A DNA stretch of 64,000 nucleotides from a virus: the IMG/VR virus record IMGVR_UViG_3300008108_007904, one strand, 5' to 3'. The position numbers and the translations under genes are program-made. Below are positions 6,006 to 62,503 of this stretch, piece by piece (position 1 is the stretch's first letter; each line of letters begins with the position of its first letter). The notes under the pieces were generated by a model. It was given only the letters and a program-made list of their open reading frames with translations. It was not told the origin of the DNA and did not search any database.

Positions 6006-7490
6006 TTAGAAGTACACGGAAGTTCTTCCTGGCTCGAAGGCGACTCCAAGGCCCTGAAGAATAATGACGTGGTAATAAAGATTTGCACCGAAGATGTTAT
6101 CAACGACGCCGTAGCGGGTTAATAAACCGACTCTTGGTGAGAAATCGTTAGGACCGATGGTTCTCTGCACCATTACAGGGATGTAAGGGCAGTAGATGAT
6201 ACCAGTGTCATAGAATTCAGGTCCTTTGTAACCGAGAAGAGCATATTCAAGGCGAGCAGCGCGGGTTGATGCAGCAGCACCGTTACCTGCGTAATTACCA
6301 CCTCTAGAAGCTTCAAATTGAGCTTCAGTGCGTGTATCACGGTATACATTAAAGCGACCAGCGAGTGAACCAACTTTCGCAACACCAACAGGCTGTGTAT
6401 TAACATTGCCTTGAACCGGTACCCACTGGAACTCTGGTAACATTTCAAGGATTGCGCACACACGTGGTGTGGCAACGATGAAGTTAGCGGAGCCGCGGCG
6501 GTTACGGACGGCAATGCGGTTAGCCTCGATGATGAGTCTCTGATAGAAGTCGCGGTTGCGCTCAACGAGCCAGCGGCCGTCTGCTGAAGCAGGTGACCAA
6601 ACGGAGAACCCAGTACCGAAACCGGCATTGAGAGCTGTTTGAATCATTCTGATGATCATTTCACGGTCGATTTCGGCCTGTAACTCATACGACATAGCGT
6701 TTGTGAGTTCAGTATCGATATCGATACCATTCATGTTCTTAAGATCCTGCTCGAGCTCAACTGACCAACGAGCTGCGAGACGACGGGTTCCTGCTTCAAC
6801 TGCTGTCTTCTCGAAAGAAACAACGATCTGTGGGATCTGACTTGTTAATTCGAAGTTAGCGAGAAGTTGAGCAACACCTTGATCGGATGCGATCATCGCG
6901 AAATCACTGTTACCAGACAACGCCGCAGCGGATGTGCCAGTAAAGCGAGTATCGAGATACTGATAGCCTAACTCAGCCCCATCGGACTGACGTTGAGGAC
7001 CACCAGCATATGCACCGTTGGCGAGTGAGCCATCAAGACCCTTGCCATTCGTTGCACCAAGTGCTGAACCTTCGTACTTATAACGGAGAGCGAAAGCAAG
7101 TCCGACAGGACCACTCATTGGTTGAACGCCGACGATTTCGTTGGTGATCAACTCAGGGAATGTACGTCTAATCATCGGGATGAGGATCTTAGGAAGACGG
7201 GAATCACCTTGCGCGTAAGCACTGTCGTTCTGTGATGGGAACTGATTGCCGTAGCCACCATTATTAATGGTTGAGCCAAAGACACCAGTAGAACCACCAG
7301 CAGTGTTCGAGGCTTCAAAGCACCACTTCTCTTGGTTTTCCAAAAGGATAGCGGTGTTTAAGCGTGTATGATCATCTTCAATCGCTTGAACGTTATTGGA
7401 GGTGTAATCCAATACTGGAGCCCACTTCTCAATAAGGAGTTTAGCGCGATTTTCATCGATGTAAGACTGTGAAGGACGTATGTTTGACAT
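6006..7490 (-). CDS. gp23: Major capsid protein
   Basis: EKWAPVLD, TAILLENQ, GVQPMSGPVGLAFALR, EIDREMI, YCPYIP, TRYG. ATG at 7490 preferred; an alternative GTG lies at 7505. Confidence 0.97.
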   Translation of the reverse strand: MSNIRPSQSYIDENRAKLLIEKWAPVLDYTSNNVQAIEDDHTRLNTAILLENQEKWCFEASNTAGGSTGVFGSTINNGGYGNQFPSQNDSAYAQGDSRLPKILIPMIRRTFPELITNEIVGVQPMSGPVGLAFALRYKYEGSALGATNGKGLDGSLANGAYAGGPQRQSDGAELGYQYLDTRFTGTSAAALSGNSDFAMIASDQGVAQLLANFELTSQIPQIVVSFEKTAVEAGTRRLAARWSVELEQDLKNMNGIDIDTELTNAMSYELQAEIDREMIIRMIQTALNAGFGTGFSVWSPASADGRWLVERNRDFYQRLIIEANRIAVRNRRGSANFIVATPRVCAILEMLPEFQWVPVQGNVNTQPVGVAKVGSLAGRFNVYRDTRTEAQFEASRGGNYAGNGAAASTRAARLEYALLGYKGPEFYDTGIIYCPYIPVMVQRTIGPNDFSPRVGLLTRYGVVDNIFGANLYYHVIILQGLGVAFEPGRTSVYF

Positions 7491-9631: not shown

Positions 9632-10300
9632 TTACTTAGTTAAAAAGCTAAGAAATGACATAACTTGCTCTTTGAGGTATGCTTGTACATCTCTTGATGG
9701 TAAATTTTTAAGACTCTTTTCAAATCTTTCATATATTTCTTCTAATCTACCGTCATTGCGTAACACATACTGCTTACTTTCGAGAATACCGTTAACAAAT
9801 GCTTTTGGACAGCTAGGATCGGCAACACAATCAACAGCAATTAACCGCATATCATGTACTCTATTTATACCATTAGATTCCTCTGTTAATTGACCGAGTG
9901 CACGACTTGACATACCTACCTTAACACCGTCATTAATAAGAGAACGAACAATCTGACCTGTTGGTGTTGAAAGTACTGTTGATGTACCTATTACTGCTTT
10001 ACCTTCCCAATGTAAATCTGTTACAAGATGGCATGCGCGCTCAAGATCTACTTCTGCAGATGCAGGGTGGTTTAATTCACCGAGTGCGCGCTGTGTATTA
10101 ATAAGCTCTTCTGTATAGCGATTAACTTCACGTCTCATGTCATCATAAGTGTAGCAACGGCGATTTTTATTAACTGCTTCTGACTCCATATATACACCCT
10201 TTATCTTTAAAACTGAAGGTCCTTTTGAGTTTTTTTCCTCAATAATATATTCGAATTGATCGAGTGATGGAGGTGTTTCTACTAATAAGCGTAATGACAT
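9632..10300 (-). CDS. gp21: Prohead core protease
   Basis: NKNRRCY, ALGELNHP, GMSSRALG, DCVADPS. Confidence 0.95.
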   Translation of the reverse strand: MSLRLLVETPPSLDQFEYIIEEKNSKGPSVLKIKGVYMESEAVNKNRRCYTYDDMRREVNRYTEELINTQRALGELNHPASAEVDLERACHLVTDLHWEGKAVIGTSTVLSTPTGQIVRSLINDGVKVGMSSRALGQLTEESNGINRVHDMRLIAVDCVADPSCPKAFVNGILESKQYVLRNDGRLEEIYERFEKSLKNLPSRDVQAYLKEQVMSFLSFLTK

Positions 10301-30064: not shown

Positions 30065-30760
30065 ATGGCAATCAACCCGTCAAACAGTAATGCAATTAAT
30101 ATTGTTAATTTACCATCAGCTCAACTCGCTGTGGCAGGTGACTATTTAATTTTACAGACAAATAACGGTACACAAAAAATTAACTTCAATGACTTTAATG
30201 TTGTTCGAACAGATATCTTCGGTAATGCTACCGTCCTCGGTAATCTTACCGGTAATGATGTAATTGTTGATAATGTTATCACAGCGAATATTACTGCGAG
30301 TAATTTCTTTACAACAAACGGTCAGGGCATTAATGGTGCAAATGGTTTTTATGATAGATTTACCATACAAGACGGTCTCATATTAAGTGCTGACTTAAAT
30401 ACAAAAAATAACCCGGTATACACCGAAATAACACAAACTATACTACCAGCTGCTACAGCATCACTAGCAAATTTGTTTTATAAAATATACGATTACAGCA
30501 GTAGCGCTACTATAATTGCTGGATCAAATGCAACATCAACCATTGCCATCAATCAATTTTTTACAAACTACCCTATAACAATTACACAAATAACTCGCGA
30601 TAAATTTACTGTAGTCCCGACTGTTGGAACACTTACGCAGGTACCTACAATAACGAATATACAGCAAATAGGACAAAACTTACAATTTCAGATAGCTGTT
30701 GGATCAAACGTTGCGAGTAATGTTCAGTTTAACTGGAGACTGCTCGTAACTTACACTTAA
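30065..30760 (+). CDS. Putative virion structural/fibre protein
   Basis: N/T/I-rich, INIVNLPSA...GDYLIL fibre-like N-terminus, late promoter. Confidence 0.55.
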   Translation: MAINPSNSNAINIVNLPSAQLAVAGDYLILQTNNGTQKINFNDFNVVRTDIFGNATVLGNLTGNDVIVDNVITANITASNFFTTNGQGINGANGFYDRFTIQDGLILSADLNTKNNPVYTEITQTILPAATASLANLFYKIYDYSSSATIIAGSNATSTIAINQFFTNYPITITQITRDKFTVVPTVGTLTQVPTITNIQQIGQNLQFQIAVGSNVASNVQFNWRLLVTYT

Positions 30761-30972
30761 TCACGAGCGTGAAACAATAAAGCTTTAGTAATTCTCCCGA
30801 GAGCTTTATTAGGATGTACACCCTCATCAACCAGCCTTTTATATTCACGCTTAAAGGAACCTACAAACTCTTCTGAGAGTTGAAAATTACGTGGATAAAA
30901 ACTCTTCTTTACGGTTTTGATAGGCGTAAAGTTTTCTTTAATTTGTGATATAATTTTATCAAACGCATTCAT
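30757..30972 (-). CDS. Small late protein (putative internal head protein)
   Basis: TATAAATA at 30978-30985; N-terminus MNAFDKIISQIKE. Confidence 0.6.
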   Translation of the reverse strand: MNAFDKIISQIKENFTPIKTVKKSFYPRNFQLSEEFVGSFKREYKRLVDEGVHPNKALGRITKALLFHARD

Positions 30973-36609: not shown

Positions 36610-37173
36610 TTACTTAGTCATAGCTACCCAGTGTCTTTTTTTATTATTGTATGTAATAGTAGCCTTTGCACTATCAATATAGCGCGATTTACCTTTAGGT
36701 ATTTTTTCTTTATAGAAAAATAATTCCGGTACACGCTGTTTTACAAGTGCTACAGCACTGCCATACTGTGGATGCTTAAACAACTTAACAAATACATACT
36801 CACCAGCGACTTTAATTATTTTACCAGCAAATACCTTTCCATTCATGACAATATTAAAGTAATCGCGATCATTAAATTTTGGGACAACTTCTTTTTTATT
36901 AGTTTGCTTTAGAGTTGCAGGCTCTTCAGGTTTTGCCCATGCCGTACTTGGATCAGGACTTATAATGTTTGCAGCACCTTTAAGAGCTCTTGAGACAGCC
37001 TCCGGGCCTGCGGGTTTATAAGGATCTTTAAGCGCACCTGCCACTGTGCCAGCACCGTGTAATGTTTTAGCAATACCTCGGCGCCAGCTCGACGGCGATA
37101 CCACGCGCTTAGCATATGTACCTAGAGACGCTTCATTTAACACTAATTTCGCTAATTCATCAAATTTACTCAT
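36610..37173 (-). CDS. Hypothetical late protein (putative internal head protein)
   Basis: N-terminus MSKFDELAKLVLNE. Confidence 0.6.
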   Translation of the reverse strand: MSKFDELAKLVLNEASLGTYAKRVVSPSSWRRGIAKTLHGAGTVAGALKDPYKPAGPEAVSRALKGAANIISPDPSTAWAKPEEPATLKQTNKKEVVPKFNDRDYFNIVMNGKVFAGKIIKVAGEYVFVKLFKHPQYGSAVALVKQRVPELFFYKEKIPKGKSRYIDSAKATITYNNKKRHWVAMTK

Positions 37174-38854: not shown

Positions 38855-39403
38855 ATGTTCGCAAAAGATATTGAATTACTGAACGAAATCTACGTACAAA
38901 AAATAACCGAAATGGGTATCGGGCCGAGAGGTGATAATGACAGTATGCAACCATCAGTATCTAAGGTTAATCATGTTGAAATGCCTCCTCACAGACAGTG
39001 CGGTCAATGTAGTGATGAAGAATGTGAAGGTTCAGTAAATCATGAAGATACAAACGCGGGAATGGTTAAGCAAAGTTTATTTAGGCTTGTAAAGCTTTCA
39101 GCAATGTTACATGATTTAGTTGCAAAACATAGCAGCGCAGAGCCGTGGGTATTAAGTAAAGTGACAGAAGCTCTTAATCACATCGAATCTGTTTATGGCT
39201 ATATGGACTATGAAACATATCGTCAACAGGTCGATACGGATATAGAGAATATTGAAGAAGAAACAGAGCAAGATCTTTATAATTCTATAGCCAATGGCGG
39301 TGAGACGATTATTAATAAGATCCGTACAGTACTTTCAAGAGAATCTAAAGAGCAAATAGAAGATTTTTTATATGAAGCTATTACAGCTCTCGAAAGCCGA
39401 TAG
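38855..39403 (+). CDS. Hypothetical late protein
   Basis: TATAAATA at 38844-38851; begins MFAKDIELLNEIY. Confidence 0.65.
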   Translation: MFAKDIELLNEIYVQKITEMGIGPRGDNDSMQPSVSKVNHVEMPPHRQCGQCSDEECEGSVNHEDTNAGMVKQSLFRLVKLSAMLHDLVAKHSSAEPWVLSKVTEALNHIESVYGYMDYETYRQQVDTDIENIEEETEQDLYNSIANGGETIINKIRTVLSRESKEQIEDFLYEAITALESR

Positions 39404-39844
39404 TTATTGAACGTACGGGCTCTTTTTCTTCATACTGTTAACAATAACATTATATTTTTGCATAAAATTATTCTCGTTAACAGAGTTAACAAACTTTTTA
39501 AAATTGGGGTTGTTGAGTCTCTCGATATTATCTGATTTCACTTCATTTTCGTTCATTACAAACTTAAGTTTATTTTGTATATCGAATGCATTTTCTTTTG
39601 TGATATTGTCACCGGTGAAAATTGCGTCAATTTCACCAGCAGGTATATCCATCACTAATGCTTTAGCGAGCATTTTAACAAGACTTACATATCCCTCAGG
39701 AGCAACAGCTTGTGGAGTATTATCAGTAGCAGGCTTAGGTTGCGCATTAGGATCAGGTGTAGTGGCGTCCTGTGGACTACCTTGCTCTACATCTTGCTCT
39801 ATTAATGTTGTAATATATTCATTATACTTTGTTAAAAAGGCCAT
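39404..39844 (-). CDS. Hypothetical late protein
   Basis: CATAAATA 5 nt before ATG. Confidence 0.65.
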   Translation of the reverse strand: MAFLTKYNEYITTLIEQDVEQGSPQDATTPDPNAQPKPATDNTPQAVAPEGYVSLVKMLAKALVMDIPAGEIDAIFTGDNITKENAFDIQNKLKFVMNENEVKSDNIERLNNPNFKKFVNSVNENNFMQKYNVIVNSMKKKSPYVQ

Positions 39845-40855: not shown

Positions 40856-41098
40856 CTACATTACAGCAGGCGTACGTCTTGCGATTTTGAATTTTACTCG
40901 CTTTTTGCTTTTTTTACGGCCTAAAATTGCATCAACAGGGTTTATTGGTCTATTATCATTAGGGTTATAAGCTTTGCTGTTTTGACTAGGGAACTGATTA
41001 CCAAATTCTCCTGTAGCATTTGGACCAAATGCACTACTTGCTGTCACATCTTCACTAAGTAAAGACTCAAAAATTCTATGAAAAATACTCATTTGCAA
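40856..41098 (-). CDS. Small late protein carrying a copy of the major capsid N-arm motif
   Basis: GNQFPSQN shared with gp23; TATAAATA at 41106-41113. Confidence 0.65.
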   Translation of the reverse strand: MQMSIFHRIFESLLSEDVTASSAFGPNATGEFGNQFPSQNSKAYNPNDNRPINPVDAILGRKKSKKRVKFKIARRTPAVM

Positions 41099-41131
41099 AT
41101 TTGTATATTTATACTATTATTTAGTAAAATA

Positions 41132-41521
41132 ATGCTTGAAGACTACATAAAAGAGCTTGAGAATGATTTAAAAATTGATGAACTTAATCTCAAAGATTAT
41201 CAATTAAGATTACCTGCTTTAAAACATAAATGGGCAGGTAGAATGATACGTCTTAAACTTGAAGTAGCTAATGATATTAAAGATAGTGAGAGTTTAAAAA
41301 AACTTCTAACTAATGAGATACAGAAAAATGCACCTGTAAAACTATCATTACCAGCTATTAGTTCTGCAGTTGAAAAACATACACAATACAAACAATTAGT
41401 AGAAAAAATAAGTCATAAAAAATTGGTTATAGAATTGCTAGAAAAAACAGAGAAGACGCTGAGCAGTGCTACATATGATATTAAAAATCTCATAGAGATT
41501 ATGAAATTAGAAATAACGTAA
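41132..41521 (+). CDS. uvsY: Recombination mediator, UvsY-like
   Basis: DLKIDE.NL...LP.LKHKW...DIKN.IE helical pattern, adjacent to uvsW. Confidence 0.75.
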   Translation: MLEDYIKELENDLKIDELNLKDYQLRLPALKHKWAGRMIRLKLEVANDIKDSESLKKLLTNEIQKNAPVKLSLPAISSAVEKHTQYKQLVEKISHKKLVIELLEKTEKTLSSATYDIKNLIEIMKLEIT

Positions 41522-53057: not shown

Positions 53058-54005
53058 TTAATTTTGCTGTGCCCAGTAAGATCTACCGGTCTGTGGCATA
53101 AAGTGCTTTGATGCATACTCTTCAGGATCGAGATTTACATCTGTAGTGTCGCCTGCATCTTCTAAATCGTCGCCAGACTCACCAGGGACAACTTTTGACC
53201 CATCGGTATCAAATATACCTCTATTAATAAGGCCTTTTATTAAACCTGTGGCTCGAGTTTCAGCGCTCTTGCTTGAGATTTCTGGATCACTCTGAACATA
53301 AAGTTGACCGATTTCTCTTGCAAGCTCAGACATCTCCATACCACCTTCAACAGAATACACAAGCTTCTTAGCTGCTTCAATGTATTTGTTGCTTGTTGGC
53401 TCAGTGCTCGCAGCAGGGGCACCTGCTGCAGGCTCACTTACTGCAGGTTCACCTTCTGGTGCTGCAACAGGTGCAGGTTTGTCAGCAGTTTGCTGTACTG
53501 CAGTAGCGACAGCACTTTGTACTTCACCTTCTGAAGGCGGCTCATCACCCTGTACTTCATCTTCAAGAGCCTGAACAACATCTTGTATAAAACCTCTAAA
53601 AATACGAGCAGTGTATCCATGAATAGCGCTAGAAGTTAAACCTTTTACATTTTCAAGCTCAGGGTATGATGACTTAAGCTGTTGTATTACAGCAGGTAAT
53701 TTTTGCTGAATAGCATTTTGCAATTTACCGAGCTGCTCTCTTTTATCACCAGAAGCAGCAAATTTTCCGCCGGGAAATAACTCATCATATATTGGTTTTG
53801 CAAGAATGTCAGCGACTTCTTCCGTCGATTTGTTTAATGCTGCTTTTAAAATCTTAAAAACATATGTATCATTTGTCTTTTCACGTTCACCGACACCTTT
53901 TGATACTGCAGATCCGAATGTCCCATATTCCGCACCGAGGTCGAGCTCATTCAATATAACACGGTTTTTATATTGTTCAAAAATTAAATTACAATCCTTA
54001 TTCAT
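53058..54005 (-). CDS. Hypothetical acidic protein (putative internal head protein)
   Basis: MNKDCNLIFEQY...LNE, PA-rich linker, AATAAATA upstream. Confidence 0.65.
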   Translation of the reverse strand: MNKDCNLIFEQYKNRVILNELDLGAEYGTFGSAVSKGVGEREKTNDTYVFKILKAALNKSTEEVADILAKPIYDELFPGGKFAASGDKREQLGKLQNAIQQKLPAVIQQLKSSYPELENVKGLTSSAIHGYTARIFRGFIQDVVQALEDEVQGDEPPSEGEVQSAVATAVQQTADKPAPVAAPEGEPAVSEPAAGAPAASTEPTSNKYIEAAKKLVYSVEGGMEMSELAREIGQLYVQSDPEISSKSAETRATGLIKGLINRGIFDTDGSKVVPGESGDDLEDAGDTTDVNLDPEEYASKHFMPQTGRSYWAQQN

Positions 54006-60863: not shown

Positions 60864-61040
60864 ATGGATATAATTCAACCAAAGATCATCACATCACCTA
60901 TAAGTGGACAGCCTTCTCGCCCTATTCTTAAAAAATATATCCGAGAGGGTAAAGAAATTGTAGAAGCAGAGTATTACGATCCTGCTTCAGGTGCATTTAT
61001 TCGTAAGGGTGTCGTTTCTGTAACAGATATACAAAAATAA
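60864..61040 (+). CDS. Small hypothetical late protein, 58 aa (not in the ORF track)
   Basis: MDIIQPKIITSPISGQPSRP...YYDPASGAFIRKGVVSVTDIQK*; CATAAATA 5 nt upstream. Confidence 0.7.
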   Translation: MDIIQPKIITSPISGQPSRPILKKYIREGKEIVEAEYYDPASGAFIRKGVVSVTDIQK

Positions 61041-61077: not shown

Positions 61078-62115
61078 GTGATATTACCGTTAGAGTATAT
61101 TGTACAGAAATTCTATCAATATGCAGGGTTTCCGAAGTACAAGAAGCTTTCTAAAGCTCATGAAGCGTGCTGTCCTATATGTCGTGAAGGTCGTTCATGG
61201 GGACGAAAAAAACGTTGTTACTATCTAATAGATAAAAATGCCATTTGCTGTCACAATTGTGGCTGGTATTCCAATCCCCTCGAATGGATAATGCAGGTAT
61301 CAGGTCTCACTAGAGAAGAAATTTACAAAGAATCTCAGCATTTCGATGTACTGCCGCTCGACATCTTACACTATGAAAGTGATATTGAGCCTACGAAGAC
61401 CTATCAACACGTGTTGCCGCTTGATAGCATTAACCTATATGATGAGAGTCAGCTACACTTTTATAACAAGAATAAAGTAGTAACTGATGCATTAAAGCTT
61501 ATAAAGGAGAGACGTATTGATAAGGCAGTAAACAGACCTGATACTCTTTGGCTCTCTTTAACAGATAAAGTACATAAGAACCGCATCATTATACCATTTT
61601 ACAACGAAGATGGTGATATTATCTTTTACCAGACAAGAGCTATATATGAAAAAGATACATACCTCAGACCAAAGTATCTCGGTAAAATAAACGGGGAAAG
61701 ATCTTTATTCAATATTAATAAAATTGACCCATCATTAGATTATATTTTTATTTTTGAAGGACCTATCGATGCTTTCTTTGTACGTAATGCAACAGCCGTT
61801 GCAGGCATCCAAGAGAAAAGCAGCAAGACATTCACTGTTCTACAAGAACAACAATTGTCACTTTTTAGACTGTATAAAAAGATATGGGTCTTAGATAGTC
61901 AGTGGTTAGATAATGCTAGTCACAAAAAAACAGAAATTTTAATTGATCAAGGTGAAACAGTATTTATATGGCCTGAGCAGATAGGGAGACAATTTAAAGA
62001 CATAAACGATCTTTGTATTGCCTGTGACAGGTATGAAATACAACCATCACTTTTTATTAAGAACAGTTTTTCAGGTATAAAAGCAAAATTAATGCTCAGT
62101 AATATTAATCGTTAG
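61078..62115 (+). CDS. gp61: DNA primase
   Basis: CPIC...CHNCG zinc finger, IIIPFY, FEGPIDA TOPRIM, KDIND. Confidence 0.93.
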   Translation: MILPLEYIVQKFYQYAGFPKYKKLSKAHEACCPICREGRSWGRKKRCYYLIDKNAICCHNCGWYSNPLEWIMQVSGLTREEIYKESQHFDVLPLDILHYESDIEPTKTYQHVLPLDSINLYDESQLHFYNKNKVVTDALKLIKERRIDKAVNRPDTLWLSLTDKVHKNRIIIPFYNEDGDIIFYQTRAIYEKDTYLRPKYLGKINGERSLFNINKIDPSLDYIFIFEGPIDAFFVRNATAVAGIQEKSSKTFTVLQEQQLSLFRLYKKIWVLDSQWLDNASHKKTEILIDQGETVFIWPEQIGRQFKDINDLCIACDRYEIQPSLFIKNSFSGIKAKLMLSNINR

Positions 62116-62503
62116 CGGATATTTTGTATCCTTTGAATGATTCACTTAACGAGCTTAATTCAGCAGCAAGACGTGAGATTTTTTTCTTTTCACTACGTGC
62201 AATGTCTTGAAAGATAGTTTCGCAAGGAGCTTCATGTAATTTTGACTGAATAGACTCTGGCGATGTACCGTTTAAAAATTCAATAAAGGAATCGAGCTGC
62301 GCAATCCATTCATCGAGTTGCTTAATTTGATTAGCTTTATGTTGATCTACTAATTGCGCTCTTCCTGCTTGCTGTACATCAAAATCACTTGGTCTTGCTG
62401 TATCAAGTTGTTGAGCCATCGCTTCACGATCACTAGCAGGCGCTGGTTGTGGCTCTTCATCAGCTTCGAGTATATAATTAAATTTTTTGCTAAACAAACT
62501 CAT
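62105..62503 (-). CDS. Hypothetical late protein
   Basis: TATAAATA at 62509-62516; begins MSLFSKKFNYILE. Confidence 0.65.
   Translation of the reverse strand: MSLFSKKFNYILEADEEPQPAPASDREAMAQQLDTARPSDFDVQQAGRAQLVDQHKANQIKQLDEWIAQLDSFIEFLNGTSPESIQSKLHEAPCETIFQDIARSEKKKISRLAAELSSLSESFKGYKISAND

Follow-up and report, generated by a model that had tools for sequence, protein, structure and literature searches.

A 78-codon gene of a T4-like virus encodes a free-standing protein homologous to the N-terminal arm of that virus's own major capsid protein, gp23, and we judge the chances to be slightly better than even (roughly 55%) that the product is a minor head protein of the T4 gene 61.1 type, which would be loaded into the prohead by its leader, cut by the gp21 protease and bound to a partner of the gp23 arm. 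In the mechanism that we infer, from late expression through packaging, cleavage and final location to DNA contact, the small protein would be made late in infection and its 14-residue N-terminal helix, acting as a T4 capsid targeting sequence, would direct it to the prohead core. The gp21 protease would cut after Glu14, where the sequence has its homologue in the maturation site of gp23, yielding a peptide of about 64 residues that copies the mature gp23 N-fist and N-arm and carries a Lys-rich loop. The arm copy would then engage the partner of the gp23 arm, which would keep the two arms matched over evolution, and the Lys-rich loop would contact DNA.

The small gene and its genomic context

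The small gene lies in a 64,000-nt stretch of DNA from a T4-like phage (referred to as the window in the rest of the text) that encodes gp23, the gp21 protease, a portal protein, uvsY and a uvsW-like helicase. Comparisons with GenBank phages returned no cultured relative of this phage and nothing closely related to the locus or the small protein, the best gp23 identity being 34%. Metagenomes contain thousands of gp23 relatives at 66-95% identity. The initial annotation placed the start of the small gene at a TTG (position 41098), giving an 80-aa product. Since all relatives begin at the Met encoded by the ATG at 41092, this ATG is the likelier start, and it gives a product of 78 aa (Table 1). 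The promoter box that had been claimed for the gene is indeed present on the minus strand and is late-promoter-like by sequence, and a TAAATA box upstream of the gene is retained in nearly all relatives.

The GIY-YIG gene begins 1 nt past the stop codon of the small gene and the two are likely co-transcribed. Although its product matches SegE, it is only the size of a catalytic domain, and the gene is a syntenic core gene rather than a roaming homing endonuclease. The first ten residues of this GIY-YIG protein are almost invariant and end in L-x-E, resembling a 10-residue targeting leader; it may also be loaded into heads.

Table 1. Coordinates of the small gene, its parts and associated features in the window.
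Feature	Coordinates	Strand	Basis or remark
Small gene P0002	40856..41092	-	78 codons plus stop
Leader, residues 1-14	41051..41092	-	predicted amphipathic helix ending L-S-E
Copy of gp23 N-terminal arm, residues 15-58	40919..41050	-	hhalign, BLASTP, DNA pattern
Lys/Arg-rich insertion, residues 59-69	40886..40918	-	insertion relative to gp23 in hhalign
C-terminal piece, residues 70-78	40859..40885	-	aligns with gp23 residues 109-119 (hhalign)
Putative T4-type late-promoter-like box TATAAATA	41106..41113	-	13 nt before the ATG
GIY-YIG gene, 149 aa	40405..40854	-	Pfam SegE_GIY-YIG, E=5e-28; directly downstream in nearly all relatives
uvsY	41132..41521	+	Pfam UvsY; divergent from the small gene; neighbour kept by synteny
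gp23 major capsid protein P0001	6006..7505	-	Pfam Gp23, E=8e-89
gp23 arm segment copied by the small gene, residues 65-119	7149..7313	-	within P0001
gp21-type prohead protease, presumed processing enzyme	9632..10300	-	phrog_207 head maturation protease, E=9e-56

The small protein is homologous to the mobile arm of gp23

The small ORF had been described as a mimic of the capsid arm that shares an 8-mer, GNQFPSQN, with gp23. Its two coding sites are both on the minus strand, one within the small ORF (40979-41002) and the other within gp23 (7227-7250), and a degenerate DNA pattern for the 8-mer matches exactly these two sites in the 64 kb, compared to 0 expected from 100 shuffles. BLASTP of the small protein against gp23 aligned 13 identities over 21 positions (E=5e-7), thereby confirming the shared motif. 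The two genes are 33.7 kb apart, and 4 of the 8 codons of the shared motif differ, every change being synonymous. Alignment of the whole family with gp23 by hhalign (probability 99%, E=5e-18) covered gp23 residues 67-119, which supports the description as an arm mimic and extends it to the whole mobile arm.

In the unexpanded T4 head, gp23 residues 66-105 are disordered and lie inside; when the head expands, they shift outwards and become the N-fist and the N-arm, which contact four subunits (PMC9546572; PMC9958956). Leu119 of the gp23 encoded in the window aligns with Leu106 of T4 gp23. Given the span of the hhalign match and its correspondence with the T4 residues that are mobile during expansion, the small protein corresponds, as judged by alignment, to the entire mobile N-terminal segment, equivalent to residues 66-106 of T4 gp23*. 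The homology includes the residues around the maturation site. Unlike gp23, the small protein has no HK97-fold capsid body (it has 78 aa, no Pfam match and a structural model consisting of a single helix), a short leader replaces the propeptide of about 64 residues, and a Lys-rich loop interrupts the sequence close to the point equivalent to T4 residues 96-97.

Typical members of the family are far closer to gp23 than is the copy found in the window, and the 8-mer in gp23 is limited to one subclade, other subclades differing at that position. Within gp23 itself, residues 65-85 (7251-7313, minus strand), from the presumed cut site to the motif, are hypervariable in both sequence and length across relatives, in contrast to the rest of the protein, which is 81-95% identical.

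Leader, presumed cut site and Lys-rich insertion

In the AlphaFold2 prediction for the small protein, residues 3-14 form a helix (pLDDT about 81) and the remainder lacks regular structure. Phe4 is at least 90% conserved, Leu12 is conserved and Glu14 is invariant among close relatives. In T4, targeting is governed by positions 4 and 7 of the capsid targeting sequence and processing by positions 8 and 10, and a 10-residue leader suffices for targeting (PMC9026906). The leader of the small protein satisfies the rules for such sequences, namely a length of 10-19 residues, an aromatic residue at position 4 and a hydrophobic-x-Glu end (PMC9026906). The presumed gp21 cut sites are after Glu14 in the small protein and after Glu64 in gp23. 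The leader pattern, the gp21 homologue, the homologous cut site and the occurrence of other leader-bearing late genes in the window thus point to entry into the prohead, with removal of the leader after Glu14. Asp at P1' is not known to be among the classical T4 gp21 sites, which counts against this cleavage. Since targeting in T4 requires no more than these 10 residues, the conserved arm copy has to serve another purpose, and its match to gp23 points to a shared partner. Candidates for this partner are adjacent gp23 subunits, once the shell has expanded, or the prohead's scaffold core.

The initial annotation also read the K/R-rich stretch as the tail of the protein. Instead, it is an internal insertion, of about 6 to 30 residues across relatives, followed by a conserved C-terminal piece that matches gp23 just before its ordered core and in which Arg72 and Arg73 are nearly invariant or invariant.

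The small gene belongs to a conserved family under purifying selection

The product had been labelled an orphan, a label which no longer holds, as it belongs to a conserved family with a counterpart in T4, gene 61.1. More than 60 distinct relatives were found in a large uncultured T4-like clade, with 17 protein clusters closely related to the small protein, 41 family representatives recovered by an exhaustive HMM search and about 55 loci carrying the gene in IMG/VR. The small protein has no match in Pfam, and neither it nor two relatives searched alongside it have a match in PHROG. Nearly all loci share one gene order, uvsW-uvsY followed by the divergent small gene and then by the 149-aa GIY-YIG gene. 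It is unchanged even where uvsY is just 33-45% identical, and it is also found in a complete 230-kb genome. The GIY-YIG neighbour is 50-82% identical among relatives.

The ratio dN/dS ranges from 0.08 to 0.30 with saturated dS, and the small gene is under purifying selection. The protein is small, predicted to be largely unstructured and without family match, as would be expected of a functionless remnant left by a partial duplication of gp23, yet such a remnant would not be held at these dN/dS values, nor would invariant motifs persist in more than 60 sequences at a locus conserved over deep divergence, nor would the same design recur in relatives of T4. We therefore give this explanation almost no credence.

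Some relatives (P0147, P0151, P0156, P0160, P0163 and locus L055) are longer, with 160-200 aa, and consist of the leader-arm-Lys module followed by an extra C-terminal domain. These extra domains match no Pfam family. The module may carry cargo as well in these cases, or the long forms may be read-through gene calls.

Relationship to T4 gene 61.1

When the T4 genome was searched with residues 59-113 of its own gp23, the sole match besides gp23 was gene 61.1 (E=2.4e-5). The two T4 proteins align without gaps at 17 identities out of 45 (E=2e-10), Glu10 of 61.1 being aligned to the maturation residue Glu65 of gp23, and the leader of 61.1 is shared by just three T4 genes, ipII, ipIII and 61.1. Gene 61.1 is a conserved ORF of T4-like phages whose function is not known (PMC1524935). 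It is present in 1432 phage records, some of which are automatically annotated as major capsid protein. In KVP40, RB43, MIZ6, Ac42 and CC2, the 61.1-like region resembles the gp23 arm of that same phage.

The 61.1 protein of T4 (54 aa; phrog_1823, long form phrog_2086) thus has the same design as the small protein, with a leader ending in hydrophobic-x-Glu, a copy of the gp23 of its own phage that starts at the cut site and a charged, Lys-rich stretch, and this architecture is present in the small-gene family, in T4 and in five other Straboviridae. The two differ in extent, as the copy in T4 is confined to approximately the N-fist and finishes with a mixed Lys/Glu tail, whereas the small protein copies the entire arm and has its Lys run internally. 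They also differ in location, since 61.1 adjoins the primase gene whereas the small gene adjoins uvsY. In the window, the primase gene is found at 61078-62115, and the small gene was beside uvsY rather than upstream of primase in all relatives. Direct comparison of the small-gene family with 61.1 by hhalign gave no significant match (E=0.0025, probability 12%), the alignment being restricted to the leader and cut site. From these sequence comparisons, common descent of 61.1 and the small-gene family is plausible. Given the weak direct similarity, the lack of a PHROG or Pfam match and the different locus, the link may instead be one of convergence.

A 58-aa ORF (60864-61040, plus strand) directly precedes the primase gene in the window, the position held by 61.1 in T4, and bears no resemblance to the capsid arm. 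In T4, the capsid targeting leader (residues 2-10 of 61.1) aligns with the end of the gp23 propeptide (residues 57-65) before the cut, and, by this alignment, the capsid targeting sequence itself may be derived from gp23.

The small protein co-varies with the gp23 of its own phage

We compared the small protein with gp23 in 18 non-redundant pairs, both members of each pair coming from a single contig (the IMG/VR contigs with the P0150-type variant do not extend to gp23). The summed score of cognate arm-arm comparisons was 1844, compared to 1454 +/- 75 for permuted pairs (p<=2e-5), a difference behind which lie few independent motif changes, roughly 4 to 6, and the cognate gp23 had a mean rank of 5.8 against 9.5 expected. 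Tracking was observed among the 7 divergent lineages (p=0.008). It was not observed on a fine scale among the 11 pairs of the GNQFPSQN subclade to which the window belongs (p=0.26), and the copy in the window, at rank 10 of 18 for similarity to its own gp23, is among the poorer mimics. The prediction made in the initial annotation, that homologues would follow the N-arm of their own gp23, therefore holds where the motif type changes but not on a fine scale within the subclade of the window. G038, G037 and G025 each have a non-canonical arm variant that is common to both proteins. In G038 the agreement between the two extends to the residues that flank the presumed cut.

Recent gene conversion between the two genes was rejected as a source of the similarity, since identical residues used the same codon in 139 of 328 cases, no more than the 143.5 expected from codon usage. 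With synonymous sites thus randomised, the similarity is maintained at the protein level, in agreement with the earlier claim that it is the peptide that is conserved and not the DNA. Shared phylogeny alone was also rejected. For independent paralogues, cross-similarity should not depend on the pairing, and an additive rate model yields no excess on the diagonal.

Co-variation is also what would be expected of a decoy directed at a host defence that recognises the capsid protein's N-terminal part, an abundant free peptide soaking up the sensor, as a mimic must follow its model. In the Lit/Gol system, host defence can be set off by a stretch of gp23 located just downstream of the arm, which counts in favour of this explanation, but the copy ends before the Gol-equivalent stretch. 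A conserved leader, a conserved cut site and strict core-gene synteny over a deep clade are atypical of anti-defence genes, and T4 61.1 itself carries a head-targeting leader. We thus consider a decoy very unlikely. Among the roles that had been proposed for the arm mimic (filling of vacant arm sites, tethering of DNA and decoy), it fits least, owing to the conserved leader and cut site.

The small protein could alternatively regulate assembly or maturation without being retained in the virion, as a substrate-like copy that competes for gp21 or for contacts with the scaffold and that could time cleavage or expansion before leaving or being degraded. Its copy does include the context of the cut site, co-varying with that of gp23, and T4 possesses a protease inhibitor, inh, annotated as a minor head protein. 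The arm region of the T4 prohead is also thought to touch the scaffold core, and mutations there alter head length (PMC9546572). Competition, however, would require neither the Lys-rich insertion nor the C-terminal Arg-Arg piece, both of which are conserved, and other gp21 substrates do without an arm. We regard this kind of regulation as unlikely.

Possible location in the head and comparison with known head proteins

Our preferred reading, a leader-loaded and gp21-trimmed minor head protein, finds its closest precedents in IPII and IPIII of T4, small basic proteins that are brought to the prohead core by a propeptide of 10-19 residues which gp21 removes after a Glu (PMC9026906; PMC3012670). 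The leader of the small protein follows the same pattern, and the protein would be packaged and cleaved in like manner. The mature parts of the internal proteins are unrelated to gp23 and vary widely, whereas that of the small protein is a conserved copy of the arm. The T4 vertex protein gp24 is likewise a paralogue derived from gp23 with a short cleaved propeptide, of 10 residues (PMC9546572), but it is a full HK97-fold protein, whereas the small protein is the arm alone. Densities that have not been assigned are reported beneath gp24 in the T4 head (PMC9546572).

The window and 11 related gp23-carrying contigs of up to 157 kb (G004-G015) revealed no second, gp24-like capsid paralogue, and the vertices are probably built from gp23. 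A separate vertex protein that would leave arm sites vacant was also sought and not found, the interval between gp21 and gp23 being occupied by scaffold-like and low-complexity basic proteins. One of these, P0180 (7600-8478), is an acidic, helical, gp22-like scaffold-like protein. The other, P0179 (8482-9627, minus strand), lies between it and the gp21 protease gene and has 381 aa of low-complexity, Gly/Lys-rich sequence; it has no family match and is a candidate for a core protein or an internal protein of the head.

As to its final position, we lean, at clearly less than even odds, towards the idea that the trimmed peptide docks on the gp23 lattice where an arm is lacking in cis, for example around the portal. 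Since every gp23 subunit has its own arm, vacant sites would be few, which argues against docking. The alternative is a mobile internal protein embedded in the DNA, like the internal proteins of T4. A complex prediction for two copies of gp23 residues 120-499 with peptide residues 15-78, run with alignments, gave a score of 0.00 and was used neither for nor against docking.

T4 head assembly is a textbook system, and 61.1 and its relatives are without an assigned role despite the standing of the T4 head. A conserved free-standing arm copy, matched to its own capsid and equipped with a head-targeting leader, would point to an unrecognised step or component of capsid maturation. The window adds to the T4 case the most complete copy, comprising the whole arm and the Lys-rich insertion, a quantitative test of co-variation with a codon-level control, and evidence that the design persists after the gene's move to another locus. 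As a doubtful generalisation, we raise the idea that throughout the T4 superfamily, T4 with its gene 61.1 included, a protease-trimmed peptide supplies the capsid N-arm in trans, completing or locking the gp23 lattice, for instance around the portal, and co-evolving with gp23. If true, this arm would be a structural part, so far missed, of a virus capsid that ranks among the best studied. The role can be tested directly in T4 through the counterpart 61.1.

Similar short amphipathic leaders ending in hydrophobic-x-Glu are encoded by six other genes of the window, at 36610-37173, 30757-30972, 39404-39844, 62105-62503 and 53058-54005 on the minus strand and at 38855-39403 on the plus strand. None of the six products has a Pfam match. 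A TAAATA box lies no more than 30 nt upstream of each of these genes except 36610-37173, and the leaders make their products candidate prohead-targeted cargo.
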